A stretch of 50,666 nucleotides of DNA from a virus. Taxonomy: Duplodnaviria; Caudoviricetes. Location: positions 1-50,666 of IMG/VR virus record IMGVR_UViG_3300020472_000040; one strand, written 5' to 3'. The notes under the pieces were generated by a model. The model ran no database searches and was not told where the DNA came from. It was given only the letters and a program-made list of their open reading frames with translations. A program made the translations under genes and the position numbers. Shown in pieces: positions 30,264 through 50,666 of this stretch (position 1 is the first letter of the stretch; each line of letters opens with the position of its first letter).

Positions 30264-32063
30264 ATGGCTGAACAAGGTATCTCTATAAATTGTGAAGGTG
30301 GGTTAGACTTAGTTTCTAGTACCTCATTACTTTTTAGAACTCCAGGAGTAGCACAAAGACTTAATAATTTTGAGTCTTCTATTCACGGAGGATACAGAAG
30401 AGTTAATGGTTATAGTAAATTTGGAAACAATCAACCAGCTGGAAATGCAGATGATATTGAAGGTATATATAGATATGCTAAAGGTGTTGTAGCTTGTCAA
30501 GGTTCTAATATTTATTATAGTGCAGACGGTACTACTTGGACACAAGTTAATAAAGATACTTATCAATCTAAAACAGGTACTGTATCAGTAAGTTCAGGAG
30601 GTGCTACAATAACTGGAAGTGGTACTTCTTTTTCTTCAGAGTTTGCAGTAGGTGACGATATATTAATTAATAACGAACAGTTTCTTGTTCTAAGTATTGC
30701 TAGTGATACATCAATGACAGCAGATGGTAATTTTGCTTCAAGTGCATCATCTCAAGTTATAAAAAAGAATGGAGCTACTGCCGCTCAATTATCTAGTGGA
30801 AGTGCAGTATCAAGAGGTTCTCAAAGTCTTTGTGAGTTTGCTTTTTATGAAGGAAATAAACAATATGGTAAACTTTATATAGCTGATGGTACTAATAAGA
30901 TTGGTGAATTAGTTATAGAAATTACAAATGCAGGAGTACATACTTATTCATTTAAAGAAGTAAAAAGGTCAGCTCCAGTAGACCCAGAAGTAGTTACTAT
31001 TTTTGGAGAAAGATTAATAGTTTCAGGTCATTCTGAAAATCCACAAGTAGTTTCCTGGAGTACTAGGTTATCACCAGAAAATTTTACAGGTAGTTCTGCA
31101 GGTACAGTAGATGTTGGAGACCAAATAGTAGGTATAAAATCTTTTCGTAATAAACTTATTATATTTTGTAAAAATAGTATATATCAATTATCTGGCCTAG
31201 ATACAACTGCAGTCTTATCATCCGTAACTAAAAATATTGGTTGTGTAAGTGGTAAAACTATTCAAGAGATTGGTGGAGATTTAATTTTTCTTTCTCCAGA
31301 TGGTTTAAGAACTATCGCAGGAACAGCTCGTATTGATGATATTGAATTAGGTTCTATTAGTAGAAAGATACTTCCTATATTTAGAGATGATATTTTTCCA
31401 AGTTTAACAACTATTACGTTTTCAAGTATGGTTATTAGAGAAAAAAATCAATACAGATTATTTTATTATAAGTCTGGTACAGCAGATTTACAACAAAAAG
31501 GAATACTAGGAACATTTAAAATATCTTCTGAAGGTGTTCCTTTATACGAATGGAGTGAATGTACAGGCATACCAGCTCGGATGACTCACTCAGGGTTTGA
31601 TGAAAATGGTGATGAAGTTTATTATCATTCTAGTATTGACGGTTATATATACAATCACGATTCTGGAAATAATTTTAATGGTAGTACTATAAGTGCTGAG
31701 TATAAAACACCTGATTTAGATTACGGAGATTCAGGTGTTCGTAAAACATTATATTATTGTAAAACAAGTATTCGTGCAGAAGGAGCCAATAATAATTTAA
31801 AATTGCTTTGTCGTTATGATTTCGATGATGCAAATGTACCACAACCATCAGAATTATCAATAGGTACTTTATCTAGTCCATCTTTATTTGGCACAGGTGT
31901 TTTTGGAACAGCTTTATTTGGACAAACATTATACCCACAACAAAAAGTAAATTTAACTGGTAGTGGGTTTACTAATAATTTTAGAATATCAAGTACTGGA
32001 ACAGGCTCTTCATATACTGTTTCAGGATTTTATGTAGACTACATCCCAGGAGGAAGGATTTAA
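30264..32063 (+). CDS. Tail tubular protein B / nozzle (P22 gp10-like)
   Basis: GGL, NFE, GY.R..G, NIGC.S..TIQEIGGDLIFLSPDG.R; position after the adaptor. Confidence 0.8.
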   Translation: MAEQGISINCEGGLDLVSSTSLLFRTPGVAQRLNNFESSIHGGYRRVNGYSKFGNNQPAGNADDIEGIYRYAKGVVACQGSNIYYSADGTTWTQVNKDTYQSKTGTVSVSSGGATITGSGTSFSSEFAVGDDILINNEQFLVLSIASDTSMTADGNFASSASSQVIKKNGATAAQLSSGSAVSRGSQSLCEFAFYEGNKQYGKLYIADGTNKIGELVIEITNAGVHTYSFKEVKRSAPVDPEVVTIFGERLIVSGHSENPQVVSWSTRLSPENFTGSSAGTVDVGDQIVGIKSFRNKLIIFCKNSIYQLSGLDTTAVLSSVTKNIGCVSGKTIQEIGGDLIFLSPDGLRTIAGTARIDDIELGSISRKILPIFRDDIFPSLTTITFSSMVIREKNQYRLFYYKSGTADLQQKGILGTFKISSEGVPLYEWSECTGIPARMTHSGFDENGDEVYYHSSIDGYIYNHDSGNNFNGSTISAEYKTPDLDYGDSGVRKTLYYCKTSIRAEGANNNLKLLCRYDFDDANVPQPSELSIGTLSSPSLFGTGVFGTALFGQTLYPQQKVNLTGSGFTNNFRISSTGTGSSYTVSGFYVDYIPGGRI

Positions 32064-32065
32064 AC

Positions 32066-35000
32066 ATGGCGGCATACACAAGACAAAGTACATTTTCAGA
32101 TGGAGATACTATTAGTGCATCATTATTTAATAATGAATATGATGCAATAGCAGCAACATTTGTTAATACATCTGGACATAAACATGACGGAACAACTGGT
32201 GAAGGTCCTGTTATAGGTCTTATTGGTGATGCTGGTGTTGCGACTCCTCTTAATAAAGTTTTAATTGATTCTTCAAATAATCATATTGAATTTTATGTAG
32301 ATGTTTCTTCAGCAGCAGTTCAACAAATGCATCTTGAAGATGGTAAACTTTTACCTAATGTTGATAGTGATATTGATTTAGGTAGCTCTACAAAATATTT
32401 TGCAAATGGTTATATTGATGCTATTACTACTACAGGTAATGTAACAGTTGGTGGTAATTTAACTGTTACTGGAACAACAACATTTAATGGTGGTACAATT
32501 AATCTAGGGGATGCAGCTACAGATAATGTTGCATTTAATGGTACTATCACAACTAACTTAATATTTGAAGGTTCTACTGCTGATGCACATGAAACAACTT
32601 TAGCACCAGGTAATCCTGGTAGTGATATTACTTTAACTTTACCTTCTTCAGCAACAGATACTTTAGTAGGTAGAGCAACAACAGATACACTTACAAACAA
32701 AACATTAACTTCACCTAAGATAAATGAAGATGTAGTAGTAACTTCTACTGCAACAGAATTAAATTTATTAGACGGTGTAACAGCTACTACTTCAGAATTA
32801 AATATATTAGACGGAGTAACTTCTACTGCATCAGAACTTAATATTCTTGATGGAGTAACTTCTACTGCATCAGAATTAAACATATTAGATGGAGTAACTT
32901 CTACCGCAACTGAATTAAATATATTAGACGGTGTAACTTCGACAACATCGGAATTAAACATATTAGATGGAGTTACTTCAACAGCAGCTGAGTTAAATGC
33001 ACTAGATGGTATTACAGCAGTTGTTGGCGAACTTAACGCATTAGATATAGGAAGCACAGCTATAGGAACAGCTGTTGCGTCTAAAGCAGTTATTTTAGAT
33101 GCTAACAAAGATTACACGGGTATTAGAAATTTAACTGTTACTGGAGAATTAGATGGAGCATCTCTTGATATAGAAGGCGATGCTGATATTAATGGCACAT
33201 TAGAAGCAGATGCTATAACTATTGCAGGAACAGCTCTTGATACTCATATAGCAGGAGTTACAGTTACTAATGCTACAACTGCTACAAATGCAAATCATAT
33301 TTCTGTAGCTGATAATGAAAGCACAAATGAAAATAATTTAATTACATTTATTGAAGATGCTTCTGCAACTGGTAATGTTGGATTAGAATCTGATGGAGAT
33401 TTTTATTATAATCCGAGTACAGGAACTGTAACGGCAACAGGATTTGCAGGAGCACTTACAGGTAATGCTTCTACAGCTACTGCTTTAGCTACAGCTAGAA
33501 CAATACATGGAGTATCTTTTGATGGCTCAGGTAATATTGATTTAAGTGAAGTTATTCAAGATACAGTTGGAGCTATGTTTGATGGTAATACAGAAACAGA
33601 TATTACTGCAACATATCAAGATGCTGATGGTACTATTGATTTAGTTGTAAGTGGGTCAAGTGTTGGAGGAAGTACTGGAATAGATTTTAACGATGGTGTT
33701 AAAACAAGATATGGCACTGGTAATGATTTAGAAGTTTATCATGATGGTACAAACGGGTATATTACAAATTCAGATGGAGCTTTAAAACTTGCTACTGAAA
33801 CATCAGGTATAGCAGTAACGATAGGACACGCTACTTCAGAAGTTACTGTTGCAGATAATTTAACAGTGACTGGAAACTTAACCGTAAGCGGAACAACAAC
33901 AACTGTTTCTTCTACAACTGTTGAAGTAGCAGATGCAATGTTAAAACTTGCTAAAGACCAAGGTACAAGTGCAGATGCAGTAGACTTTGGATTCTATGGT
34001 AAGTATGGAGTTGGTGGTACTGCTAAATATGCAGGTATATTTAGAGACCAAAGTGCTACAGGCACACCTTTTACATTTTTTGATACATTAGAAGCAGACC
34101 CTGGAACTACCGTAAATACTGGTGGTACTGGTTATGATTTAGCAGATATTTCTGCAGGTGGAGCAACTTTTGCAGATAGTGTAACAATTACTGGAGACTT
34201 GACTATAAGTGGTGATGACATTACTATGGGGACAAATACATCGGGCCATATTATGGTTGCAGATGGTACTAATTTTAATCCAGTAGCAGTATCAGGTGAT
34301 GTTACAATTTCTAATGCTGGAGCTGTTACAATAGCAAGTACAGCTGTTGAAACTGGTATGATTGCAGCTGATGCTATTACAGGAGCTAAGATTGCAGATG
34401 ATGCGGTTGATTCTGAACACTATACAGACGGTAGTATTGATACAGCTCATATTGCTGACTTAAATGTAACTACAGCAAAGATTGCAGCCGATGCAATAAC
34501 TGGAGCAAAGATAGCTGACGATGCTATTGATAGTGAACACTATGTTGATGGTAGTATTGATACAGCTCATATTGGAGATGATAATGTAACTCAAGCAAAA
34601 ATAGCAGATGATGCTGTAGGTGCTGACCAACTAGCAGCTAGTGCAGTAGTTACTGCGTCTATGGTTGACGATGCTGTAACTCAAGCTAAAATTGCTGATG
34701 AGGCAGTAGATGAAGCTAGACTTCAAATCAGTAATGCTGGTAGTAATGGACAATATTTACAAAAACAATCAGGAAATACTGGTGGACTAACATGGGCAGA
34801 TGCAAGTTCAGTCGGTGGAGCAACAGGTGTAGATTTCAACGATAATGTTAAAGCAAGATTTGGAACTACTGATAATGATTTAGAAATTTACCATGATGGT
34901 TCCAATAGCATAATTGCTGATACAGGAACAGGTGGTTTACAAATACTTTCTAACGAATTTAAAGTTATGAATGCTGCAGGTAATGCAAATCAAGTTATTG

Positions 35001-35611
35001 GTACTCAAGCTGCAGCAGTAGAACTTTATCACAACGGAACTAAGAAACTTGAAACTGCAAGTGGTGGAGTAACCATAACAGGAACTGCAACTGCAACAAC
35101 TTTTGACGGTTTATTAGATACAGGAGCTGCTTTAAAAGTAGGAGCTTGGTATAATGACAATGGTACAAGTGCAAAAGGAAGATTTTGGTTTAGTGACGGT
35201 GGAACAACTCAAATTAATACTGCTGCTGATATTGACTTTTCTTATGAAACAACAAATAAAGCTAGAATAGAATCTGACGGTGATTTTATTTGTGTCGGTA
35301 ACATTACCGCTTATGGAAGTTTATCAGATGAAAAACTAAAAGAAAATATTGAGATAATTCCAGATGCTCTTGATAAAGTTTGTCAGCTTAAAGGTGTTAC
35401 TTTTGATTACAAAAAAGATGGTAAGAGGTCTACAGGATTGATTGCTCAAGATTTACAAAAAGTTTTACCAGAGGTTGTTTATGAAACAAAAGATATTAAT
35501 AATGAAAATGAAAGCTATCTAGCAGTAAATTATGAAAATACAATTGGACTTTTAGTTGAGGCAATTAAAGAATTAAAGGCTGAGGTTAAAGAATTAAAGG
35601 AGGCTAAATAA
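32066..35611 (+). CDS. Tail fibre protein with C-terminal intramolecular chaperone (peptidase S74)
   Basis: N-terminal GH.HDG anchor; 13-aa and 10-aa repeats; SDEKLKENI, G.IAQD, V.Y....GLLVEAIKEL. Confidence 0.92.
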   Translation: MAAYTRQSTFSDGDTISASLFNNEYDAIAATFVNTSGHKHDGTTGEGPVIGLIGDAGVATPLNKVLIDSSNNHIEFYVDVSSAAVQQMHLEDGKLLPNVDSDIDLGSSTKYFANGYIDAITTTGNVTVGGNLTVTGTTTFNGGTINLGDAATDNVAFNGTITTNLIFEGSTADAHETTLAPGNPGSDITLTLPSSATDTLVGRATTDTLTNKTLTSPKINEDVVVTSTATELNLLDGVTATTSELNILDGVTSTASELNILDGVTSTASELNILDGVTSTATELNILDGVTSTTSELNILDGVTSTAAELNALDGITAVVGELNALDIGSTAIGTAVASKAVILDANKDYTGIRNLTVTGELDGASLDIEGDADINGTLEADAITIAGTALDTHIAGVTVTNATTATNANHISVADNESTNENNLITFIEDASATGNVGLESDGDFYYNPSTGTVTATGFAGALTGNASTATALATARTIHGVSFDGSGNIDLSEVIQDTVGAMFDGNTETDITATYQDADGTIDLVVSGSSVGGSTGIDFNDGVKTRYGTGNDLEVYHDGTNGYITNSDGALKLATETSGIAVTIGHATSEVTVADNLTVTGNLTVSGTTTTVSSTTVEVADAMLKLAKDQGTSADAVDFGFYGKYGVGGTAKYAGIFRDQSATGTPFTFFDTLEADPGTTVNTGGTGYDLADISAGGATFADSVTITGDLTISGDDITMGTNTSGHIMVADGTNFNPVAVSGDVTISNAGAVTIASTAVETGMIAADAITGAKIADDAVDSEHYTDGSIDTAHIADLNVTTAKIAADAITGAKIADDAIDSEHYVDGSIDTAHIGDDNVTQAKIADDAVGADQLAASAVVTASMVDDAVTQAKIADEAVDEARLQISNAGSNGQYLQKQSGNTGGLTWADASSVGGATGVDFNDNVKARFGTTDNDLEIYHDGSNSIIADTGTGGLQILSNEFKVMNAAGNANQVIGTQAAAVELYHNGTKKLETASGGVTITGTATATTFDGLLDTGAALKVGAWYNDNGTSAKGRFWFSDGGTTQINTAADIDFSYETTNKARIESDGDFICVGNITAYGSLSDEKLKENIEIIPDALDKVCQLKGVTFDYKKDGKRSTGLIAQDLQKVLPEVVYETKDINNENESYLAVNYENTIGLLVEAIKELKAEVKELKEAK
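32741..33052 (+). repeat. Eight tandem 39-nt repeats (TSTASELNILDGV)
   Basis: Visible in both DNA and protein; synonymous variation between copies. Confidence 0.92.
34330..34720 (+). repeat. 10-aa repeats (AITGAKIADD / SIDTAHI)
   Basis: Imperfect 30-nt units including a duplicated 120-nt block; boundaries approximate. Confidence 0.85.
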
Positions 35612-37010: not shown

Positions 37011-37814
37011 ATGAACGACATACTAAAACGAATAAAGTTTATTTATGAATATGCTACACACTTACAAACAGATAATAGCCCTCCATTAGAATTAATTTAT
37101 AAGTTTATTAATGAACTAGATAAGAAAGAGGCAAAAGCTATCTTTCATAAATTTTCTAAAGATAAGTCTAGTGAAAGAATATTTAATGAAGAAAAAGCAG
37201 CATTAGACAGATTAAATGAAGATGAATTTAAAGAGAATACATTAGGAGCTGAGTTTAAAGGGTGGTTAAAACAATCAGAAGGAGCTGTAGATTTATTTAA
37301 GTTTGGTGTATTTGGAAGAACCGAAGGTAAGACAAAATTTAAAAAGTTTTTAAAACATACTTGTTTACAACACGATTTAATTCATTTCTTAAATGGATAT
37401 GATGTTACGCCATTAGGTGAGGTTGGAGTTATCACTTTTAATTTAGCTCAAGAATGGAGACCTTCTTTTGCAACAATATTATATGCCTCATTCTTAATGA
37501 GTATCAGAAATACTTTTCTACCATCTAAATATCCAGCCAATACACAATGGCATAAGGCAATAAAATATTCACCTCTTATGGTATTTTGTAAAGTTGTAAG
37601 AGAAGCATGGAAAAGAGGAAAACAATCTGAATGGTTTTTAACTGTAGATTGGAATGGTTATTTAGATACGGATTTAAAACAAGTTAAAGAAAAACTTAAA
37701 TTAGAAAAATCACCTACTTATTGGGATGAAGTTCAGCCTGTATGGGCAAGAGCTTTAAGACATTACAAAAAATATGAAAAAAACAAAAGAGAACGACAAG
37801 AAGATGTGGCGTGA
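37011..37814 (+). CDS. Coq4-family protein
   Basis: ENTLG, HDLIHFLNGY....LGE (HDxxH-x11-E), A..RG, VDW. Confidence 0.8.
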   Translation: MNDILKRIKFIYEYATHLQTDNSPPLELIYKFINELDKKEAKAIFHKFSKDKSSERIFNEEKAALDRLNEDEFKENTLGAEFKGWLKQSEGAVDLFKFGVFGRTEGKTKFKKFLKHTCLQHDLIHFLNGYDVTPLGEVGVITFNLAQEWRPSFATILYASFLMSIRNTFLPSKYPANTQWHKAIKYSPLMVFCKVVREAWKRGKQSEWFLTVDWNGYLDTDLKQVKEKLKLEKSPTYWDEVQPVWARALRHYKKYEKNKRERQEDVA

Positions 37815-38764: not shown

Positions 38765-40804
38765 ATGGCATATGAAATACCAGTAGAATCACGACCAAGA
38801 GGAAGAATAAGTAATAGACCTATTACTGATATTCTTGATGACCAAGCGTCTAATCCTGTAATACCTTCTGCAGCTGTACAACAATATACTGACCAAACCG
38901 TACAGAGTAATGAACTTATGAGTTCTCCTACTACTGTAGGTACAACAACGGCTGGTCAACAAACTGTACAAGCTCCTAGTAATATAACTGCAACTACTGG
39001 AACAGGTACAAATATAGCAGCTCCTACTACTATACAACCTACTAGTGTTACTGCAGCAACAGCTGGAACTCCGCAAACTGTTGCAGGTGTTTCTGGAAGT
39101 GGTTTAACTCAACAAGTTACTGGTCAAACAAGAGGTACTGTTACTGGTGCTGCGTCTGGAGCAAACCAAACTGCTGGAAATGCTCAAGGTGTAATAACTG
39201 CTGCTGCTCAAGGACAAGTAAGTTCTGGAGCATTAGCTAGTGCTGTTACAGGACAAAGTGCTACTGTTCAAGCGCAAACATCTACATTACCAAGTGATAT
39301 TCAATCAGCAGTAGGAACAAACCCTGCGGCTGTTACTGCTACAGTTGTTAGTCAACCTACAAGTGTTGTTGCACAAATTGCTTCATTACCTGCAGATACT
39401 CTTGTTTCAGGACAATTAGAAACTTTATTAAGTGGAATTGATAGTGGTACTATTCCAACATGGGCAAGAGCTGCTGTTGAAGCAGTGGATGCAAACCTTG
39501 CTTCAAGAGGAATGAGTCGTTCTTCTATAGGTAGAGAAGCTTTAGTTAATTCTATTATTCAAAGTGCTATTCCAATCGCACAAGCTAATGCAACTCAACT
39601 ACAACAAGTAGCTATGGCTAATCTTAATAATCAACAACAAGCTGAAGTATTAACAAAACAACAACAATTTCAAGCTCAACTAACAGGAGCCGAGTTTCAA
39701 CAACAAGCTGCTTTAACAACTGCTGGTAATACTCAACAGTTATTAATGGCTAATTTAAATAATCAACAACAAGCTATTCTTTCTAGTGCACAACAACAGC
39801 AACAAGTAAGATTACAAAATCTTGCAAATAATCAACAAGGTGCTGTAACTAATGCTGAGTTACAACAACAAATGACAATGGCTGGGATGAATAATCAACA
39901 GTCTGTTGCTCTTGCTAATGCTCAGACAACTGCTGGTATGGATGTTCTTAATCTTAATAATGAACAACAAAAAGTAATTTCTAATTCTAATTTATTTAGA
40001 ACATTTGGTTTACAAAATTTAACAAACGAACAACAAGCTGTAATGCAAAATGCTGCTAATCTTGCAGCACTTGATATGGCTGAATTAACTAATAGACAAC
40101 AAGCTCAAGTATTAAATGCTCAGTCTTTTTTACAACTTGATATGACTAATCTTAGTAATTCTCAACAAGCTGCTATGTTAACTGCACAACAAAGACAACA
40201 AGCCATGTTATCTGACCAAGCTTCTGAAAATGCATCTAGACAATTTAATGCCACAAGTGATATGCAAACAGACCAATTTATGGCGAACCTTGCTTCAACT
40301 ATTTCACAAAATAATGCAGCTCGTGCAGATGCTATGTCTCAGTTTAATTCTACTCAAGAAAATCAAATAGCTCAAATTAATGCTGGTAATCAACTTGAAT
40401 CTGAAAGATTAACAGACCAACTTAATGCACAAATAGACCAGTTCAATTCTAACTTAGGTTTTCAAAAAGACCAATTTAATGCACAAAACTCTATGGCTAT
40501 AGAACAATCTAATGTACAATGGAGAAGACAAACAAATACAGCAAATACTGCAGGAGTTAATGCTGTTAATCAAGCAAACGCTATGAATGCTTTTAATCTT
40601 AGTAATCAAGGATTATCTTTTCTTTGGCAAGAAATGAGAGATGCTGCTAAGTGGGAATTTGAAGCTTCAGAAAATGATGATGATAGAGATGCTAAAATTA
40701 CTATAGCTGCTCTTGGTAACGAAGCAGCGGATACTGCTGCTAAAAGACAGTCTTTAGTTGACCTTGCTAACTGGGCAGCAGATTTATGGACTCAAGGACA
40801 ATAA
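38765..40804 (+). CDS. Putative internal virion (ejection) protein, Gln/Asn/Ala-rich
   Basis: Thr-rich N-terminus, RG.S.SS.G motif, N.QQA 11-aa periodic repeats, QFN motifs. Confidence 0.75.
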   Translation: MAYEIPVESRPRGRISNRPITDILDDQASNPVIPSAAVQQYTDQTVQSNELMSSPTTVGTTTAGQQTVQAPSNITATTGTGTNIAAPTTIQPTSVTAATAGTPQTVAGVSGSGLTQQVTGQTRGTVTGAASGANQTAGNAQGVITAAAQGQVSSGALASAVTGQSATVQAQTSTLPSDIQSAVGTNPAAVTATVVSQPTSVVAQIASLPADTLVSGQLETLLSGIDSGTIPTWARAAVEAVDANLASRGMSRSSIGREALVNSIIQSAIPIAQANATQLQQVAMANLNNQQQAEVLTKQQQFQAQLTGAEFQQQAALTTAGNTQQLLMANLNNQQQAILSSAQQQQQVRLQNLANNQQGAVTNAELQQQMTMAGMNNQQSVALANAQTTAGMDVLNLNNEQQKVISNSNLFRTFGLQNLTNEQQAVMQNAANLAALDMAELTNRQQAQVLNAQSFLQLDMTNLSNSQQAAMLTAQQRQQAMLSDQASENASRQFNATSDMQTDQFMANLASTISQNNAARADAMSQFNSTQENQIAQINAGNQLESERLTDQLNAQIDQFNSNLGFQKDQFNAQNSMAIEQSNVQWRRQTNTANTAGVNAVNQANAMNAFNLSNQGLSFLWQEMRDAAKWEFEASENDDDRDAKITIAALGNEAADTAAKRQSLVDLANWAADLWTQGQ

Positions 40805-40820
40805 TATAATATAAAAAAAA

Positions 40821-41276
40821 ATGAATGATGTAGAAGCTGCAGTACATTTAGTAAGTACTGCTAAAGTTTATAAAAATATATTTAAAGGAGATGTTGAACA
40901 TATTCTACAACAAGTTTTACCACCAATAAAACTTAATCAGTATAGAGTTTTTAGAAGAGGAGATAGACCTTTTGCTTATACTAGTTGGGCTTTTATGAAT
41001 AATAACTCTTCTGAAAAATTTAAAAGAACAGGTTTAATAGAAGACGAAAGCTGGTGGAACAATGGTAATAATATATGGCATATGGACACTATTTGTAATG
41101 ATGGTAATTTACTAACATTACATAGATGGACACAAAGAAATTTAGCTGAACAAGTTGGTAATAAAAAGAAAATAAATTGGATACGATTAGGTTACGATAA
41201 GTTCGGCGGAGTTAAAGTTAAAAAACAAGGATACGCATTTACAAAAGGAGAAAAAGAAAATGGGTTCGATAGTTAA
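40821..41276 (+). CDS. RTX toxin-activating acyltransferase (HlyC/TAAT)-family protein
   Basis: VLPPIKLNQY, PFAYTSWA, W.NG..IWHMD.I and INWIR parallel HlyC VLPAIQANQY, PVAYCSWA, WTSGDRKWFIDWI and FRAIR as recalled. Confidence 0.82.
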   Translation: MNDVEAAVHLVSTAKVYKNIFKGDVEHILQQVLPPIKLNQYRVFRRGDRPFAYTSWAFMNNNSSEKFKRTGLIEDESWWNNGNNIWHMDTICNDGNLLTLHRWTQRNLAEQVGNKKKINWIRLGYDKFGGVKVKKQGYAFTKGEKENGFDS

Positions 41277-42588
41277 AAAAATAAAAAAGAAAGTTAAAAA
41301 GGTTATTAAAAAAAACCCTGTTACTAGAATAGTAAAAAAAGCTACTAAAAATATTAGAAAACTTGGAAGTAAACTATGGACTAAAGTTAAAAAGTTTGGT
41401 AAAAGTGCTTTTAGAAAATTTGCAAAGTTTAGTGATAAGATAGGACCAATAGGAATGATTGCTTTATCTTTTGCCATGCCATATTTAATGGCTGGTATGG
41501 GTCAAGCATGGGCAGGTTTAGGTAATTGGTTAGGTGCAGCAGCAAAAGTAGCTCCTAATGCAGGAATGACATTTGGTAATACACTAGCACAACTAGGACA
41601 CAGTGCTTGGTCAGGTATTAGTAGAGCAGGACATTTTATAAAAGGAACATATCAAGGTATTACTCAAACTTTAAGTAAAACTTTTGAAGGTTTTGCTGGA
41701 GTTAAAAATGCAGCAGGTGTAAGAACAGGCGGAAGTGTATCTGAAGGTTTTAGTAATCTTTGGAAAGGTACTGGAGATGTTCTTTCTGGTAGAGCTGGAA
41801 TGGGTACAGAAAAATTAATAACTAAAGCTGTTGAAACTGGTGCTAACTGGTCTCCAACTATAGCGAGGACAACTCCAATGCAAGTTGGTACTGGACAGTT
41901 TACTAGAAGTACAGGTGTTTGGGGAACATCTAGCGGTGTAGTTCAAACTGGTGGTGTTCAAGCTTTTAATGCTAATCAAATGAATATGGCTTCACAACAA
42001 ATTATTAATCAAGCTATGTCTGGTACAACATCAATGTATACTCCTGATGTTCAAACATATGCTAATACACTTTCAAAAGAACATGGATTAAATTCTTATG
42101 ATGCTCATAAACATATGATGGAAAATGGAGTATCTGTAGGAGATGCTAATAAATATACATTAGATTTTAGTCAATCTAAAGATTTTGGTATGACACAATT
42201 TAGAGAAGGGGCTAGTGGTGTGAACTATCACTGGACAGGAGATACTGCTAATGTTCAATTTAAAGATTACGGAATGGACTATGTTGGTATAAAAGATAGT
42301 AAACTTCGTTACCAAGGACCAGATAATTTTACTTATGGAAGCCAAGATAAAACTCCTAGTTTATTACAAAGAGGAGGCTCTGCTGCTATGAGTTATCTAA
42401 CTTCTCTTGGTCAAGACCCTGGAGAAAATCCATATGTTCCTATGGGAGGAAGTGCTGGTTTAGACCCGTTTGGAACTAGATATGCTGGTTCTGATGTATA
42501 TGCAGCAACTTCAGGACAGTTCTTAAATAGAGCACAATCAGATTGGTTTATGGGTGCAAAAGAAAGAATGGATTATCGAGGCAACTAA
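41260..42588 (+). CDS. Putative internal virion/pilot protein with Lys-rich amphipathic N-terminus
   Basis: 21 Lys in the first 60 aa, then a hydrophobic Gly/Ala segment; SD AAGGAG; overlaps the acyltransferase gene. Confidence 0.7.
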   Translation: MGSIVKKIKKKVKKVIKKNPVTRIVKKATKNIRKLGSKLWTKVKKFGKSAFRKFAKFSDKIGPIGMIALSFAMPYLMAGMGQAWAGLGNWLGAAAKVAPNAGMTFGNTLAQLGHSAWSGISRAGHFIKGTYQGITQTLSKTFEGFAGVKNAAGVRTGGSVSEGFSNLWKGTGDVLSGRAGMGTEKLITKAVETGANWSPTIARTTPMQVGTGQFTRSTGVWGTSSGVVQTGGVQAFNANQMNMASQQIINQAMSGTTSMYTPDVQTYANTLSKEHGLNSYDAHKHMMENGVSVGDANKYTLDFSQSKDFGMTQFREGASGVNYHWTGDTANVQFKDYGMDYVGIKDSKLRYQGPDNFTYGSQDKTPSLLQRGGSAAMSYLTSLGQDPGENPYVPMGGSAGLDPFGTRYAGSDVYAATSGQFLNRAQSDWFMGAKERMDYRGN

Positions 42589-43446: not shown

Positions 43447-44142
43447 ATGAAAAATATTTTAATGGCAGTTGTTATTACAGCTGTAATGTTTTGTAGTCTT
43501 AGTATTGCAATGGCAGATAATGATGTTACATCTAGTGGAGCAACTACAAATGACCAAGTAAATTCAAGTGGAAGTAATACCGCTATTACAGGAGGATATA
43601 ATTCAGAAAGTACAACGAATTATCAAAGTGGTTCATCTTCTAATACTACTACAAATGCAACTACTAATAATAATTCCTATACTGGTGATACTCGTACAGT
43701 TCCATCAGCATCTGCTCCAGGAATTTCAGCAATGTCGCAAGACCTTTGTACAGTTGGTGTTAGTTTAGGAATACAAAAACCTTTAATAGGTGGTAGCATT
43801 GGAATTACTAAAAGAGATATGAATTGTGAAAGAATGAAACTTTCTAAACTTCTTTTTGATTTTAATATGAAGGTAGCAGCGGTAAGTATTTTATGTCAAG
43901 ATGCTAGAGTATTTTCAGCTATGGCTCATGCGGGAACACCGTGCCCATTCAATGGTAAAATAGGAGGAGACGCTCTAGAAGAATGGAATAAATACGACGA
44001 ACAAAGACCAGACTACGAAGAGTACACAAAAACTCTAAGATACATGGAAGAAGTTGATGCAAAGATTACGGAGGCAATGGATGATAAGGAAGCTTATATC
44101 GTTGACGGCAATGGTAATGCTGTTCAGCTCGGTAGCAAATAG
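43447..44142 (+). CDS. Secreted/periplasmic protein with Ser/Thr/Asn repeats and a four-Cys domain
   Basis: Signal peptide ending AMA; SASAP, D.C, D.NCER.KLSK.L, AAVS.LCQD.RV, AGTPCP. Confidence 0.75.
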   Translation: MKNILMAVVITAVMFCSLSIAMADNDVTSSGATTNDQVNSSGSNTAITGGYNSESTTNYQSGSSSNTTTNATTNNNSYTGDTRTVPSASAPGISAMSQDLCTVGVSLGIQKPLIGGSIGITKRDMNCERMKLSKLLFDFNMKVAAVSILCQDARVFSAMAHAGTPCPFNGKIGGDALEEWNKYDEQRPDYEEYTKTLRYMEEVDAKITEAMDDKEAYIVDGNGNAVQLGSK

Positions 44143-46024
44143 CCAGACTGTAACTATTGAAGACACTCCCAACCCAGGTGATACTACTACAGTAACTACT
44201 GTTACAACTGGTAATTCTGTAACTACAGATAATTTAATATCTCAGAAATGGAATGATGGTAGTTGGCAAGGCACTATGTTTCCAGACTCATCTGATATTA
44301 ATGAGTCAGTTTATCTTACAGGAAAAGATGGAAAGTATGCAGAAACAACTATTCAATCTCAAGATATATTAACAGAACAAGAATTACAACAAGGATTAAC
44401 TTCTGAATTATCTGCAGACATAAGATGGTGGAATCCACAAGAGTCTACTGTCACTATGACACAGACAGCAACTAATGGTATTGATACTACAACACAAAGT
44501 ATAACTTTAGAAGATACTACAAATCATAACTATCAGTTTAATAATTATTCTAATACATTAACTATTACACCTAATACAGAAAATAGTCACGGTTCTTTAA
44601 CTGCTAGGTTTAGTTTTGATATACAAGGGAACGCCAACTATAACGGAGGCCACAGCGGTGTCGATGTGAAAGACCCGAAATTAAAACTAACATATGATGT
44701 TCTTTCTTCTACAACAGTAACTACAGTTCAGTATTGTTGGGAAAAGACACCACCAACATGTGTAGGTCAAGATGAAATAGCTGAAGTCGAAACTTTTTTA
44801 GATACATTTGAAAGTGACATATATCTAGATGATATATATCTTTATGAACAGCCAGGCATAATAGAAGATATGGATTTTGATTATTCATTTAATGATAACT
44901 TTTATGAAGAAGAAGAATTTGAAATACAAGAAGACTATTTAACACTTGATGAATTTTTTTTTGAAGAAGATTACTTTACGGATGACTATTACGAAGAGTT
45001 TGAACTGGAAGAATTTATTCCAGAAGATATGGCCTTTGAAGAAGTAGAGTTCTTTGATGAACTACCAGAAATAACTTTTGAAGATGAATACTTTGAAGAG
45101 TTTAATATAACTGAGCTACCTCCAATGGAAGAAATGTTCTTTGAAGAAGAAATGTACTTTGAAGAAGAAATATATATGGAAGCATTTACAGATGAAGCAT
45201 TCATAGAAGAGTTTGATGAGATGTTTGAAGAAATACCTATGGAAGAAATGAATGTAGAAATGGCAGAAGAGATGTTTGAGGAAATGTTTGAAGAATATTT
45301 TGAAGAAGAACCACCAATGGAAATGGTTGAAGAGTTTAAAGAAGAAGTTATAGTAGAAAATGAAGAACCTTTGATGGAAGAACCTACTGAAGAAATAGCT
45401 ATGACTAATGAAGAACCAATTGAGGAAACAAGTAATGAACAGATTGAAGAACAACCCAGTAGCGAAAGCGTTATTACAGACGAGCCGCAGGAGACAACAG
45501 ACGTTGCCGAACAAGAAGAATCACTTGACGAGGAGTCAGCTGAACTCACAGTTGTTGAAGGAGACTCAAATAAAGAACCAAGTTCTAGCGGAGAATCTAT
45601 CTCAAATGAATCCGAAACTAACGAAAGAGTGGAAGTTGATTTAGATATCAAGGTTGCTGCGTTAGAAAAAGTAATTAAAAATAAAATATCTAATGAAATG
45701 CAAAGAGTTAGTATAACTTTAGATGCGGTTAATGAAATAGTATCTAAAGAAATGGTAGCTTCTCAACCAGATATTTCTAGTTATATGGATATAAATCAAG
45801 CTTTATTTGATACACGGCAATTACCTCAAGGTAATCCTGAGTTTTTTAATCAAGTTAGTTTAGATTCTTATTCTAATGAAATTTATACAAATGTTGCAGC
45901 TATAAATAAAATGATTGGTTTTGACCCAATAGTTCAATATCAACTAAAAGTAAAAGATGCAAAAGATAATACTAATAAAGCTTATTTTAAATTAAAGGAG
46001 TTAATGGATGCCAGACTTAATTAA
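44081..46024 (+). CDS. Large secreted protein with an extremely acidic Glu-rich domain (start 44081 preferred)
   Basis: GGAGG SD then signal peptide MIRKLISLTAMVMLFSSVANS; long E/D/F/M-rich tract. Confidence 0.75.
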   Translation: MIRKLISLTAMVMLFSSVANSQTVTIEDTPNPGDTTTVTTVTTGNSVTTDNLISQKWNDGSWQGTMFPDSSDINESVYLTGKDGKYAETTIQSQDILTEQELQQGLTSELSADIRWWNPQESTVTMTQTATNGIDTTTQSITLEDTTNHNYQFNNYSNTLTITPNTENSHGSLTARFSFDIQGNANYNGGHSGVDVKDPKLKLTYDVLSSTTVTTVQYCWEKTPPTCVGQDEIAEVETFLDTFESDIYLDDIYLYEQPGIIEDMDFDYSFNDNFYEEEEFEIQEDYLTLDEFFFEEDYFTDDYYEEFELEEFIPEDMAFEEVEFFDELPEITFEDEYFEEFNITELPPMEEMFFEEEMYFEEEIYMEAFTDEAFIEEFDEMFEEIPMEEMNVEMAEEMFEEMFEEYFEEEPPMEMVEEFKEEVIVENEEPLMEEPTEEIAMTNEEPIEETSNEQIEEQPSSESVITDEPQETTDVAEQEESLDEESAELTVVEGDSNKEPSSSGESISNESETNERVEVDLDIKVAALEKVIKNKISNEMQRVSITLDAVNEIVSKEMVASQPDISSYMDINQALFDTRQLPQGNPEFFNQVSLDSYSNEIYTNVAAINKMIGFDPIVQYQLKVKDAKDNTNKAYFKLKELMDARLN

Positions 46025-49165: not shown

Positions 49166-50666
49166 ATGAATAATTCTAATCTTCCTTTATATTTACAGGA
49201 TGAAGATTCTTCTACAGAATCTATTACTGTTCCTTCTGAAAGTAATTCTAATCTTCCTTTATATTTACAGGATGAAGATTCTTCTATAAAATCTAATAAT
49301 ACTCTTCCTTTATATTTACAGGATGAAGATTCTAAAATTATCCAACCAAATATAGATAAACCTACTAATGCTCAATTAGCTCAATACGGAGCTTCTCTAG
49401 AAACTTATTTAATTGGGGATATGTTAAGGCTAGGAGAAGCTGCTTTTACTTCTAAAACTGCTAAACAAATAGAAAAAGAAAGAATGGAAGCAATTTATGA
49501 AAAGTTTCCTTGGGCTAAAAGTGGGGAGTATGATAACAATGCTTATGTATGGGGTGGTCGTGGTTTAGTTATGGTAAGTGACCCAGTATATTTACTTATG
49601 CCTTGGGCAAGAGCCGCACAAGCAGGACGAGCTTACAAAGGATGGAAAAAATATACAGCAGCTGGTGGAGCTACTGCAGCTTTAGGAGCAGGAGTAGGAG
49701 TAGGAGCTTCTTCAATTCATGTCGGAGCTAAAGAAGGAAGAATGCTTACAAAAGAGGAAGCATTACTTGCAGGAGGAGCAGGTGCAATACTATCTCCTAT
49801 TGCTCTTGGAGTAACTGCTGGTATTTCTAAAGTAGCAGGTAAAGTTGCCCCTAATTTATTTAGTAAAGATAAGATTACTCAAGAAGGTGTAAAAAAATTA
49901 CTAGCAGAAAATCAAATAAAAAGTTTAAATCTTAGTGCTAAACAATTAGCAGATATAAAAAAGATAAGTAATATTCCATCAGTACAAAAATTATTTAGAG
50001 AATTAACAGCTCAAGATAATAATTATATAAAGTATGTTTTACCTAGAGAAAATATTATAAAATTAATTAATAAATTTAAAGGAACAATTACTACTAAAGA
50101 GTATAAAAAAATATATGCTAAATTAAGTCCAGAAGAAAAAAAACTTTTAAGTGGTACTAAAGTAAAAGACTTAAAGGGTAATATAAAAGACTTAAATAAA
50201 TTAAAAATAGAGTATGGTCGTCAAGCACATAAGGCTATTGAAAATCAAGCTAAAGCTGAAAGTAGATATAATCTAGAAATAGTTAAACAAGTTCATGCTA
50301 TTGGAGGTTTAAAATCTCAACTAGGTAGAGCACTTGCATATAACTTTACTAGACCTTTTATAGGTGCGGGTATGGGTGCTGGAGTAGGTACTCTTTATGG
50401 AGAGACTGAAGAAGAATTTTATAGCTACTTGCGTGGAGGATTGGTTCTTGGTTTTATGAGTAGAAGCTTAAGAGCTGGTGCTCTTAAAGGCATTCCTTTA
50501 AAAGAACAACAAGGGTTTGCTAAACTTTTGAGTGGTAACTACATACAAAATCTTTTAAGAAAAATAAACATAGGTTTATCTACTAGTACATCAACAAGAT
50601 TATCTGCTAGAGGTGGTATTGTAGATGAATTTTCTACAATGATGTTCCCTAAATTTGATACAAGTG
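49166..50666 (+). CDS. Large putative internal virion protein (3' truncated; not in ORF track)
   Basis: ATG at 49166, open where I translated it (start and end); N-terminal LPLYLQDEDS x3; Gly/Ala hydrophobic segments. Confidence 0.75.
   Translation, partial: MNNSNLPLYLQDEDSSTESITVPSESNSNLPLYLQDEDSSIKSNNTLPLYLQDEDSKIIQPNIDKPTNAQLAQYGASLETYLIGDMLRLGEAAFTSKTAKQIEKERMEAIYEKFPWAKSGEYDNNAYVWGGRGLVMVSDPVYLLMPWARAAQAGRAYKGWKKYTAAGGATAALGAGVGVGASSIHVGAKEGRMLTKEEALLAGGAGAILSPIALGVTAGISKVAGKVAPNLFSKDKITQEGVKKLLAENQIKSLNLSAKQLADIKKISNIPSVQKLFRELTAQDNNYIKYVLPRENIIKLINKFKGTITTKEYKKIYAKLSPEEKKLLSGTKVKDLKGNIKDLNKLKIEYGRQAHKAIENQAKAESRYNLEIVKQVHAIGGLKSQLGRALAYNFTRPFIGAGMGAGVGTLYGETEEEFYSYLRGGLVLGFMSRSLRAGALKGIPLKEQQGFAKLLSGNYIQNLLRKINIGLSTSTSTRLSARGGIVDEFSTMMFPKFDTS
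49181..49333 (+). repeat. Three identical 30-nt repeats (LPLYLQDEDS)
   Basis: cttcctttatatttacaggatgaagattct at 49181, 49253 and 49304. Confidence 0.92.

Follow-up and report, generated by a model that had tools for sequence, protein, structure and literature searches.

A small gene of the HlyC family of acyltransferases (TAATs) overlaps the start of a gene for a putative virion protein in the window analysed here, by which the whole stretch of 50,666 bp of viral DNA is meant. Judged from sequence comparison across related loci, the N-terminus of the protein encoded downstream co-varies with the presence of the enzyme and with its catalytic acid, and the features tracking the enzyme are Gly2 and residue 3 rather than a Lys. 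It is probable, with a chance of roughly 60%, that the enzyme attaches an acyl group to the N-terminus of the virion protein encoded behind it, with either the alpha-amine of Gly2 or a Lys as acceptor. The co-variation suggests that a lipid anchor is put on the protein which meets the host envelope. The features of the window are compiled in Table 1.

Table 1. Position of the features discussed in the text.
Feature	Position	Strand	Basis or remark
Tubular-tail-B-like gene	30264-32063		upstream of acyltransferase gene
Tail fibre ORF	32066-35611		upstream of acyltransferase gene
Upstream neighbour, 679 aa, Gln/Asn/Thr-rich	38765-40804	+	slot kept in HTVC115P and HTVC103P
TAAT-like (HlyC family) acyltransferase gene, 151 aa, Tyr-for-His phage subfamily	40821-41276	+	Pfam PF02794, AF2, Foldseek
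Active-site codon Tyr17	40869-40871	+	codon read directly
Codon of His87	41079-41081	+	codon read directly
Active-site codon Asp89	41085-41087	+	codon read directly
Active-site codon Arg122	41184-41186	+	codon read directly
Ribosome-binding site AAGGAG of downstream gene	41245-41250	+	within the 3' end of the acyltransferase gene; 9 nt before ATG 41260
Overlap of acyltransferase and downstream gene, 17 nt	41260-41276	+	translational coupling
Putative substrate, 442 aa, virus-only, no Pfam family	41260-42588	+	homologue and Pfam searches, ESM Atlas
N-terminal module, residues 1-60, Met-Gly-Ser, then polybasic amphipathic helix	41260-41439	+	Gly2 at 41263-41265
Conserved hydrophobic Gly/Ala-rich segment, residues 61-100, core GPxGxxxxSxAMP	41440-41559	+	
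Candidate internal virion protein with endolysin-like part	49166-50665	+	phrog_342, E 1.3e-4; open at window end

The acyltransferase and its active site

The 151-aa protein matched the Pfam family HlyC (PF02794) with an E-value of 1.6e-17 (64 bits; gathering cut-off 25), whereby residues 10-126 were aligned to positions 8-117 of the 127 profile positions. A six-frame search of the genome with this profile yielded 63.8 bits for the same gene, and the Pfam scan of the protein at E ≤ 1 gave no further family. All HlyC motifs named in the preliminary description of this DNA were found in the translation, i.e. VLPPIKLNQY (residues 32-41), PFAYTSWA (50-57), IWHMD (85-89) and WIR (120-122). The sequence match to ApxC (4whn) had an E-value of 5.7e-7. 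The preliminary description had also named the TAAT fold as a point to be checked, and an AF2 model of good quality (pLDDT 91.2, pTM 0.84) showed ApxC as the best Foldseek match (4whn_B, E 4e-8, TMq 0.70, 140 columns), followed by GNAT-like domains as the next, non-TAAT matches from E 1.2e-2 onwards. According to this model, the protein has a true TAAT fold.

The catalytic His of the His/Asp dyad is His24 in ApxC and His37 in CdiC. An exchange of this His for Tyr with retention of the Asp had been noticed at the outset and was confirmed when 131 family representatives were aligned with MAFFT and the residues in the active-site columns were counted. At the position of Tyr17, 79 of these sequences have His, 42 have Tyr and 3 have Phe; at the position of Asp89, which aligns with the Asp of the W-F-I-D-W-I motif of ApxC, 108 have Asp and 15 have Glu. 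In 160 viral homologues the His position is taken by Tyr (137), Phe (16) or Trp (7) and never by His; Asp or Glu is present at the Asp89 column in 143 of the 160, and Arg122 is retained in all of them. Because the canonical His is missing at the position of Tyr17 and in all 160 viral homologues, the protein was filed as TAAT-like and as a member of a distinct subfamily. In excerpts of PMC8510554, the Asp is described as the base acting on the acceptor amine, and His-to-Ala variants of CdiC and ApxC are reported to retain residual activity.

The enzyme is common; its relatives in IMG/VR amounted to at least 582 in one scan and at least 179 in another, for which the profile was derived from a 9-sequence subset of Tyr-type enzymes. 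The loci analysed are the best 80 of each scan, out of 760 or more.

The downstream genes and their N-termini

The two open reading frames were recovered at the positions originally described, with an overlap of 17 nt. This overlap was present in all 10 loci of the TAAT cluster (60% identity) to which the enzyme of the window belongs. A survey of gene neighbourhoods, as suggested in the preliminary description, showed that the linkage of enzyme and downstream gene is kept far beyond this phage: in the 160 viral loci with the enzyme, the downstream gene overlaps the enzyme stop codon by 1-17 nt in 156 of 158 cases, and such overlaps were seen across 12 enzyme clusters (60% identity). The enzyme is encoded directly before a structural protein in 151 of the 158 loci, with overlapping start and stop in 149. 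In 7 early-region loci, the gene overlapping the enzyme stop encodes a coiled-coil protein of 95-107 aa which starts with MS or MT. HTVC103P, HTVC104P and 7 metagenomic loci have the enzyme gene in the early/replication module, beside the genes for SSB and primase. In HTVC103P and HTVC104P the enzyme is thus early, yet the homologue of the 442-aa protein still possesses the MG and basic start; this arrangement is compatible with an enzyme acting in trans.

The source genome of the window is a pelagiphage of the HTVC103P/115P type, a phage abundant in the ocean. Between the tubular-tail-B-like gene and the acyltransferase gene, the tail fibre gene and at least six other ORFs are located. The initial assignment of both genes to a region of internal virion genes could be upheld in part: the tail fibre gene upstream and a weak match of the last ORF to phrog_342 are in line with it, but the neighbours themselves carry no assigned function. 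The title of phrog_342 is 'internal virion protein with endolysin domain'. For the 679-aa protein encoded upstream no PHROG family was found, and the scaffolding protein of phi29 appeared only as a weak match. The reported lack of RTX repeats in the window was reproduced, since a search of the whole record with PF00353 gave zero matches and the single GGxGxD in its six-frame translation lies within the tail-fibre ORF. Type I secretion genes were not matched among the 18 ORFs scanned.

The 442-aa protein has 82 homologues with a length of 385-457 aa; a Pfam domain was present in none of them, and 79 start with MG. In the ESM Atlas it fell into unnamed virus-only clusters (model pLDDT 0.36), for which all structural rows had a TM below 0.3, and the AF2 model of the whole protein was poor (pLDDT 44). 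A match to phrog_38045 ('membrane protein') had an E-value of 5.7e-5. Judged by its position only, the protein is probably a virion protein, either ejected or a component of the tail tip.

The N-terminal features of this protein were found as first reported. The initial 60 residues comprise 21 Lys (35%, in comparison to 4% in residues 101-442), and among the 6 windows starting in residues 1-46, 5 had a helical hydrophobic moment above the 95th percentile of the shuffles. The protein starts with MGS, residues 61-100 form the hydrophobic Gly/Ala segment (mean hydrophobicity 0.4-0.67), and the only Gly-Lys of the first 60 residues is G47-K48. In 30 homologues, G2 is conserved to at least 90%, and K56 and K60 as well as G62, P63, G65, S70, A72, M73 and P74 are invariant. 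K48 itself, which had been proposed as the acylation site on account of the Gly-Lys, was abandoned as such; it lies outside the columns conserved to at least 90% in these homologues, and one subgroup has GGAAF at this place. When the enzyme was modelled as a complex with residues 1-100 of the 442-aa protein, in a run without controls, the score was 0.00 against a mark of 0.32, which is taken neither for nor against the pairing.

The proteins encoded behind the enzyme belong to three families, namely the type found in the window, a second ejection-like type and tail hubs resembling pb3 of T5 and J of lambda. The families show no mutual BLASTP match past the first 18 residues, and their common start is M-G-[S/G]-[I/V/F]-V-x-x-[I/V] (35 non-redundant N-termini). 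An MG start occurs in 133 of 158 enzyme-linked proteins in comparison to 39 of 670 other ORFs of the same loci. An origin of MG as a by-product of the gene overlap was dismissed, as the overlaps of 1-17 nt lie in different frames and the unlinked gp58 of HTVC103P still starts with MG. In one locus (L166) the enzyme is intact, yet an extension of 31 codons precedes the usual Gly.

The catalytic-acid column is occupied by Asp or Glu in each of the 133 enzymes which precede an MG start. In 17 hub-linked enzymes this position is Ser or Ala, and His87 is replaced by Val; the respective hubs start with MP (16) or MS (1). These 17 enzymes form one clade on a long stem, the only clade without the catalytic acid and also without Gly2, and both losses, of the active site and of Gly2, together count as one evolutionary event. 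Other start codons for the MP and MS hubs were considered and rejected: a stop codon is found at a distance of 1-12 codons upstream, the interval is free of ATG, GTG and TTG, and AAGAGG is located about 10 nt ahead of the start.

A hub-centred sample of 80 loci allowed a comparison of hubs with and without the enzyme. With the enzyme upstream, all 35 hubs start with MG[G/S] (G 33, S 2). When the enzyme was absent from the slot, 25 of 43 hubs started with MG, and position 3 was F, W or L in all 25; counting one locus which is short of upstream DNA, this applies to 26 of 26 MG hubs, so that none of the 26 has MG[G/S]. Five independent pairs could be drawn from the hub tree, and the motif goes with the enzyme in every one of them; for 5 pairs, the sign test has a floor of p 0.0625. 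The complete genome of HTVC202P has no match to PF02794, yet its hub starts with MGI. In the phage DSL-LC06 the same slot is filled by a GNAT acetyltransferase (PF00583, E 2.2e-9), followed by a hub starting with MSK, and in another locus (L220) a weak GNAT match (E 5.6e-3) precedes hubs starting with MC.

Proposed mechanism and alternative explanations

In the proposed mechanism, the 151-aa protein would work as an acyltransferase with the TAAT (HlyC/ApxC) fold and would draw an acyl chain from the acyl carrier protein of the host late in infection. An acyl carrier protein gene (PP-binding, PF00550) was not matched in the record, so a host acyl donor would be needed. The acyl chain would then be transferred onto the N-terminal module of the protein translated directly after the enzyme. 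Lipid, basic helix and hydrophobic segment together might form a membrane anchor, which would help the virion protein to grip or enter the host envelope during DNA delivery. In related phages, the same enzyme would act on the N-terminus of the tail hub (T5 pb3 or lambda J-like). Catalysis, acyl donor, chain length, location in the virion and acceptor atom are what we infer in this scheme.

It seems rather unlikely that classical TAAT chemistry applies, i.e. that the acyl group is placed on one or several Lys side chains of the polybasic region, for example K56 or K60, and that Gly2 and residue 3 are a recognition element only. The characterised TAATs HlyC, CyaC and CdiC all acylate Lys (excerpt of PMC8510554), and Lys residues are offered by the window-type module as well as by a W-L-x-P-K-P-like motif which follows the hydrophobic stretch in many hub N-termini. 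A Lys conserved across the enzyme-linked proteins was, however, not found. Several enzyme-linked hubs are free of Lys over the initial 20 to 50 residues. Among the 133 MG proteins, 17 have no Lys up to and including residue 40, and a further 12 have their first one at residues 21-40. Hubs of the HTVC112P type have no Lys ahead of the conserved hub domain, and even the Lys of that domain is Gln in one group. Together with the variability of position 48 and the co-variation of residues 2 and 3 with the enzyme, these N-termini argue against a Lys acceptor, and the exposed alpha-amine of Gly2 is the acceptor we would favour over a Lys side chain. To our knowledge, there is no case of alpha-amine acylation by a TAAT.

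The loss of the canonical His could also indicate that the TAAT-fold protein is not an enzyme but a morphogenesis factor or chaperone, which shields the hydrophobic N-terminus until assembly. T7 gp13 (IVP-A) would be a precedent; in excerpts of PMC4819975 it is described as acetyltransferase-like, required for morphogenesis, not kept in the virion, and without demonstrated activity. Moreover, one clade keeps the gene without the catalytic acid, which would be explained if the protein had a use other than catalysis. This explanation is nevertheless improbable. The acidic residue and Arg122 are widely kept in the viral homologues (143 and 160 of 160), the long stem of the acid-less clade and its concomitant loss of Gly2 are expected from relaxed constraint after loss of catalysis, and an exact tracking of residue 3 would not be expected of a chaperone for a hydrophobic helix.

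A short-chain acetylation of the N-terminus, or a similar cap serving stability or assembly without a lipid anchor, is quite improbable, even though ordinary GNATs fill the same slot in related phages (DSL-LC06, weakly in L220) and only small residues (G, S, P or C) occur at position 2; a small residue there permits removal of the initiator Met. The family is that of acyl-ACP-dependent TAATs and not of CoA-type GNATs, with ApxC ahead of all other structural matches by 5 orders of magnitude in E-value, and F or W at position 3 of hubs without the enzyme resembles the replacement of a hydrophobic group rather than of a cap. Very improbable is a host protein or lipid as target (for take-over or envelope remodelling), with the adjacency to virion genes being incidental. 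The location in the early/replication module of HTVC103P, HTVC104P and the metagenomic loci mentioned above would fit such a role, but both the position directly before a structural protein, mostly with overlap, and the co-variation with the N-terminus of that protein speak against it.

Several observations stand against N-terminal acylation of the downstream protein as the main reading: Tyr17 in place of the canonical His, retention of Gly2 without the enzyme (HTVC202P and 25 of 43 hubs) and the extension in L166. The MS and MT partners in the 7 early loci and the invariant K56 and K60, as possible Lys acceptors, are also to be mentioned here.

A wider generalisation is put forward tentatively, and we regard it as possible but less likely than its opposite. 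Tailed phages would possess their own system for fatty acylation of an N-terminal Gly, in which a TAAT-fold enzyme with Tyr for His lipidates Gly2 of hub or ejection proteins. T7 gp13, P22 gp14 and the GNATs in the same slot might then be variants of one rule, according to which the first virion protein to penetrate the envelope has its N-terminus modified by an acyltransferase. In lineages losing the enzyme, an aromatic residue beside the Gly would make up for the loss.

Comparison with known systems

The closest cultured relatives are the pelagiphages HTVC103P, 104P, 115P, 026P, 111P and 112P, in which the same gene family is annotated as 'toxin-activating lysine-acyltransferase (HlyC)'. This annotation was already known; new here are the gene coupling, the MG starts and their link to the catalytic acid in the 160 loci with the enzyme, and the co-variation of the N-terminal motif with the presence of the enzyme in the 80 hub-centred loci. 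In the excerpted text of Zhang et al. (bioRxiv 10.1101/2019.12.14.876532), the gene appears as an abbreviation in a figure legend and 'acyltransferase' occurs once, with no partner, motif or function discussed. In open-access articles of PMC and bioRxiv, no description of a phage TAAT function or of lipidated virion, tail-tip or ejection proteins of tailed phages was found, and a review on ejection proteins (PMC8954989) contained no occurrence of acyl, lipidat or myristoyl. If true, a lipid modification made by the phage on a virion protein would be part of the entry of viruses which are among the most numerous on Earth into the most numerous bacteria. The TAAT family would be widened from toxins and CDI effectors to virions, possibly with a new acceptor chemistry, and a testable hypothesis would be available for T7 gp13 and P22 gp14. 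The sequence rule offered is MG[G/S] with the enzyme and MG[F/W] without it.

HlyC, CyaC and ApxC (PF02794; 4WHN) are homologous to the phage enzyme in sequence and fold and share the catalytic Asp. The order of hlyC and hlyA, the enzyme gene first and the substrate gene immediately next, is alike here. In contrast to these systems, the catalytic His is Tyr, as in 42 of the 131 family representatives, RTX repeats are missing, and the partner is a protein of the phage structural module, whose conserved feature is the extreme N-terminus and not an internal Gly-Lys.

Eukaryotic non-enveloped viruses possess N-myristoylated penetration proteins, of whose myristoylated peptides the lipidated phage protein would be the counterpart, and in E. 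coli AatD acylates the N-terminal Gly of Aap. A Met-Gly start, a small residue next and a basic or amphipathic stretch, which together provide a lipid and electrostatic anchor, are common to these systems and the phage proteins. The substrate logic of NMT, Gly2 with a small residue 3, is also found here (MG in 79 of 82 homologues; MG[G/S] in 35 of 35 hubs). NMT and AatD belong to enzyme families unrelated to TAATs and use other donors.

The small genes for T7 gp13 (IVP-A, PF11090) and P22 gp14 (PF11039) are immediately followed by the gene for the first ejection protein (gp14 in T7 and gp7 in P22). We know of no activity of T7 gp13 or P22 gp14. A small GNAT-superfamily-like gene heads the block of internal virion proteins there (excerpt of PMC4819975), to which the enzyme described here may be likened. 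The suggestion in the preliminary description that the phage enzyme possibly occupies the slot of gp13 has a published basis, as a match of T7 IVP-A to an acetyltransferase has been reported (Hardies et al. 2016, excerpt of PMC4819975). In a second phage family (L091, L106) the TAAT gene lies just after a tubular-tail-B-like gene and before an MG protein; in the window, the enzyme gene does not adjoin tubular tail B. A kinship in sequence was not found: hhalign of a 78-sequence enzyme profile against T7 gp13 gave an insignificant probability of 7% over 10 columns, and neither PF11090 nor PF11039 appeared in the Pfam scan of the enzyme at E ≤ 1. Foldseek matches of the enzyme to gp13-like 'host specificity protein A' were weak (E 0.015-0.15, TM by query 0.34-0.46).

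A precedent for the proposed role is CdiC, a TAAT which lipidates a non-RTX delivery protein, so that the latter binds more strongly to the outer membrane of the target (Halvorsen et al., mBio 2021, excerpt of PMC8510554). In CdiC and class IV CdiA, a TAAT has been co-opted for a non-RTX protein engaging the outer membrane of another cell, to which the phage pair is likened. CdiC has kept the His/Asp dyad and modifies the internal Lys1467 with 3-hydroxydecanoate, whereas the enzyme described here is viral, its His is replaced, and the acceptor is possibly an N-terminal Gly. In CdiA loci without the enzyme the acceptor residue is substituted (same excerpt), which is the same comparative signal as the one seen here.

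Fold and active site of the acyltransferase

The 151-aa ORF that the preliminary description had taken for an RTX-type (HlyC) acyltransferase is borne out as such, with HlyC as the sole Pfam family at E ≤ 1 (E 1.6e-17, 64 bits vs. a cut-off of 25) and a sequence match to the toxin-activating acyltransferase (TAAT) ApxC (4whn, E 5.7e-7). The AlphaFold model calculated from a 78-sequence alignment (pLDDT 91.2, pTM 0.84) has a predicted TAAT fold; ApxC was its top PDB match (E 4e-8, TM 0.70, 140 columns), followed by ordinary GNAT-like domains from E 1e-2.

A His-to-Tyr change in the active site, with the catalytic Asp kept, had been raised as a caveat and is real. HMMER identified 393 relatives at E ≤ 1e-3 in 1.84 billion representatives. 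In 131 aligned sequences drawn from the best 150 of these, the column of Tyr17 holds His (79), Tyr (42) or Phe (3), and the catalytic-acid column (Asp89) Asp (108) or Glu (15). His-type relatives in this alignment carry the classical S-P-x-H-R and I-A-P-F motifs and Tyr-type relatives L-Y-K-x-F-D-K-Y-K, W-H-I-D/E-T and I-x-W-I/L-R, and the change defines a subfamily. In this respect the enzyme departs from the characterised TAAT class, of which the catalytic His is a defining feature. In GNAT enzymes, Tyr is a usual general acid. No phage-encoded ACP was found in the window. According to the CdiC paper (PMC8510554), Asp is the base which deprotonates the acceptor amine, the role of His is confined to protonating the ACP thiolate as it leaves, and both CdiC and ApxC still have activity when this His is changed to Ala. 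The missing His is therefore not a strong argument against catalysis by the enzyme.

The downstream gene and its N-terminus

The window, an entire IMG/VR virus record of 50,666 bp (completeness estimate 94%), is AT-rich (GC 27–37%). The genes of roughly the first 17 kb are encoded on the minus strand. They are followed by a plus-strand structural block, with genes for terminase, portal, major capsid, proteins like tail tube A and B, and a fibre of 1,181 aa. The closest cultured relatives are the Pelagibacter phages HTVC115P, HTVC103P and HTVC104P (about 69% nucleotide identity in parts of 38.5–46 kb), 'HTVC103P-type' podoviruses with a structural module like that of phage HMO-2011, as stated in a preprint (bioRxiv 10.1101/2019.12.14.876532).

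The start of the 442-aa ORF is overlapped by the enzyme ORF by 17 nt, and AAGGAG lies 9 nt before its ATG. All features attributed to this protein beforehand are present: the overlap, the Met-Gly (MG) start (here MGS), 21 Lys in the first 60 residues (Lys 4% in residues 101–442), an amphipathic pattern (significant in 5/6 N-terminal windows) and a hydrophobic, Gly/Ala-rich segment (residues 61–100). MG starts occur in only 2 of the 56 window ORFs of at least 80 aa, the other being the major capsid protein. RTX repeats were not found in the window, as the preliminary description had stated. Homologues of the 442-aa protein number 82 (385–457 aa) in a set of 5.8 billion proteins, only three cultured phages possess one, and no Pfam domain was found in the 82. 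They start with MG (79; MGS 64, MGA 13, MGF 2) or MSS (2), the remaining one being a truncated gene call. Across 30 diverse homologues, Gly2 is at least 90% conserved and K56, K60 and a core G-P-x-G-x4-S-x-A-M-P are invariant; the Gly-Lys at K48, singled out earlier, is not a conserved position. Because neither the ESM Atlas model (pLDDT 0.36) nor the AF2 model (pLDDT 44) gave a usable fold, the function of this protein rests on sequence features and context.

Among cultured phages, the enzyme was detected in 6 of 50,697 records, all pelagiphages. HTVC115P shows the arrangement of the window, and in HTVC026P, HTVC111P and HTVC112P the enzyme lies between a gpL-like protein and a 719–1,102-aa tail protein, whose start it overlaps. 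In HTVC103P and HTVC104P it is located in the early region, adjoining SSB and primase genes and 19 kb from the homologue of the 442-aa protein, which keeps the MG start followed by a basic helix.

Two IMG/VR samples obtained with different enzyme queries (best 80 of 179 and best 80 of at least 582 relatives) contained, together with the window, 160 complete enzyme ORFs in 12 clusters at 60% identity (one other runs off its contig), and 158 of these are followed by an ORF of at least 30 codons. The latter overlaps the enzyme stop by 1–17 nt in 156 loci and starts 12 nt after it in the other two. The downstream ORF starts with MG in 133 of the 158; the other starts are MP (16), MS (5), MT (3) and MI (1). 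For comparison, MG begins 39 of the 670 remaining ORFs that these loci carry on the plus strand with a length of at least 100 aa.

The MG partners belong to three families, between which BLASTP (E ≤ 0.01) gave one match only, in the first 18 residues. These are the window type (homologues of the 442-aa protein), proteins of 375–587 aa whose gene follows a tubular-tail-B-like one and precedes a weak 'DNA ejection protein' match, and tail hub proteins that contain PF13550, are related to T5 pb3 and have a hub or gpL-like protein ahead of them. The consensus of 35 non-redundant partner N-termini is M-G-[S/G]-[I/V/F]-V-x-x-[I/V]. At seven early-region loci, the enzyme is coupled to a small coiled-coil protein instead of an MG partner; the coiled-coil gene is conserved (95–107 aa, Lys/Glu-rich), and the early-region enzymes (HTVC103P, L022–L025, L028–L030) have Trp at the column of Tyr17.

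Coordinates of the enzyme, its partner and further features in the window and in sampled viral loci (L numbers)
Feature	Position	Observation
TAAT-like enzyme	window 40821-41276 (+)	151 aa
Partner protein	window 41260-42588 (+)	442 aa
Major capsid protein	window 27966-28943 (+)	phrog_267, E 1e-58; starts Met-Gly
Coq4-like ORF (ubiquinone biosynthesis)	window 37011-37814 (+)	267 aa, in structural block; PF05019, E 2.8e-9, 37 bits (cut-off 22.9); unexpected within a phage tail region
ORF amid putative internal virion genes	window 43447-44142 (+)	231 aa; phrog_20531, E 2.4e-12; start resembles a signal peptide; region rich in Ser/Thr/Asn
ORF of 656 aa	window 44054-46024 (+)	very long acidic Glu/Phe/Met-rich middle; no family in Pfam or PHROG; overlapped by long antisense ORFs, probably a result of repeat composition
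Early-region version	L003:4983-5752 (HTVC103P gp34-gp35); also L022-L025, L028-L030	enzyme overlaps coiled-coil gene by 4-8 nt
Insertion before hub	L166:3917-4010	31 codons between enzyme stop and the usual Gly-Phe-Asp-Pro hub start
T7 gene 14	L168:1229-1819	right after acetyltransferase-like gp13; gp14 starts Met-Cys, then hydrophobic stretch
P22 gene 7	L169:1370-2059	right after gp14 (DUF2824); gp7 annotated to lose first 20 residues to host OpdA protease
Pre-hub slot, Roseobacter phage CRP-821	L171:1947-2360	DUF6950 protein; hub N-terminus Gly-rich, hydrophobic
Slot directly before hub gene, phage DSL-LC06	L172:1905-2390	classical GNAT, PF00583, E 2.2e-9; hub starts MSK
Hub genes with N-terminal extension, TAAT-less	L211:818-1600; also L215, L218, L221, L233 and others	eleven genes; L211 extension 261 aa, Hint/intein-type matches PF08517 (8.7e-10) and PF05203 (6.8e-8)
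Pre-hub slot	L220:1005-1460	weak GNAT match; hubs start MC

Covariation of enzyme and N-terminus

A further sample comprised 80 loci chosen by the hub domain, irrespective of the enzyme. With the enzyme upstream (35 loci), all hubs start with MG, and position 3 is Gly (33) or Ser (2). Of 43 loci without the enzyme in the upstream 700 nt, 25 encode MG hubs; if a further locus whose upstream DNA is too short is included, position 3 of the enzyme-less MG hubs is Phe (18), Trp (7) or Leu (1) in 26/26. The other 18 enzyme-less hubs start with MP (4), with MC (3; the slot before the hub gene gave a weak GNAT match) or with MF/MY (11, with an N-terminal Hint-domain extension). A self-cleaving domain in such an extension would offer a second way of generating a new hub N-terminus; for the shorter extensions in L182 and L250 (114–115 aa), no family match was found. 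In a quick hub-domain tree, at least 10 changes in enzyme presence and 10 changes in the MG[G/S/A] motif are counted. The motif follows the enzyme in 5/5 phylogenetically independent pairs on well-supported branches, a number at which p cannot drop below 0.0625, and in 10 pairs when all branches are used. For MG against enzyme presence, Fisher's test gave 3.8e-6, a value uncorrected for kinship and inflated by related sequences.

The catalytic-acid column is Asp or Glu in every one of the 133 enzymes with an MG protein behind them. In 17 hub-linked enzymes it is Ser (16) or Ala (1), Val replaces His87 (W-V-M-S-F in place of W-H-I-E-T), and the downstream hubs start with MP (16) or MS (1) at genuine start codons. 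Because these 17 form a single clade (support 100, stem 0.54 long), nested among MG lineages, the loss of the acid and of Gly2 is one event and suggestive, not statistical.

The enzyme is thus functionally linked to the opening two or three residues of the protein encoded behind it. This holds for several virion proteins without relationship to one another, and the link is widespread in marine phages. In the simplest mechanism, the N-terminal module of the downstream protein would be the substrate, a reading to which a probability of about 60% is assigned. The earlier proposal that the phage acylates its own ejection protein is partly supported and sharpened, since the link lies at the extreme N-terminus and reaches tail hubs.

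Within this module, a Lys or the alpha-amine of Gly2, freed by removal of the initiator Met, might be the acceptor. The data lean towards Gly2, because the partners share no Lys (the first Lys of the 133 MG partners lies beyond residue 40 in 17 and at residues 21–40 in 12 more), because Gly2 and the catalytic acid were lost together, and because residue 3 is small with the enzyme and Phe or Trp without it. The latter reads like a built-in hydrophobic stand-in for a lipid. Gly2 is nevertheless only a candidate acceptor, because no TAAT is known to modify an alpha-amine, because neither K56 nor K60 varies within the window-type family, and because Gly2 persists in many enzyme-less hubs and in HTVC202P, whose complete genome gave no PF02794 match. 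In L166, the insertion makes the Gly internal although the enzyme is seemingly intact. That Gly2 is the acceptor and that this rule also generalises is, taken jointly, less likely than not.

Comparison with known systems

In gene position, the nearest precedent comes from podoviruses, with their operon of internal virion proteins. As described by Hardies et al. (PMC4819975), T7 IVP-A (gp13) and the same-slot gene of phiRIO-1-like phages match acetyltransferases, and IVP-A is required for morphogenesis and absent from virions. Gene order and Pfam assignments were confirmed for T7 (gp13, PF11090, then gp14) and P22 (gp14, PF11039, then gp7). The N-termini of T7 gp14 and P22 gp7 are both unusual, owing to the Met-Cys/hydrophobic start and the OpdA cleavage, respectively. 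The resemblance of the enzyme to gp13, whose slot it had been suggested to occupy, is one of position and logic and not of family, because the modelled structure resembles gp13-like proteins weakly and no profile similarity to T7 gp13 was found.

In cultured pelagiphages, the enzyme gene is already annotated as HlyC, and the preprint (bioRxiv 10.1101/2019.12.14.876532) mentions it once, in a figure legend. Nothing was found in open-access PMC and bioRxiv literature, including a review (PMC8954989), on its partner, the N-terminal motif or an acylated phage tail or ejection protein.

The enzyme is homologous to HlyC, CyaC and ApxC, but it lacks the canonical His and its partner is not an RTX protein. 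The closest functional precedent is CdiC, a TAAT which, according to its authors (PMC8510554), lipidates an internal Lys in the receptor-binding domain of CdiA, whereupon the effector holds the target outer membrane; the CdiA acceptor residue is substituted in loci without the enzyme. What appears to be new here is the altered catalytic residue of this TAAT together with a new substrate class, and possibly a new acceptor.
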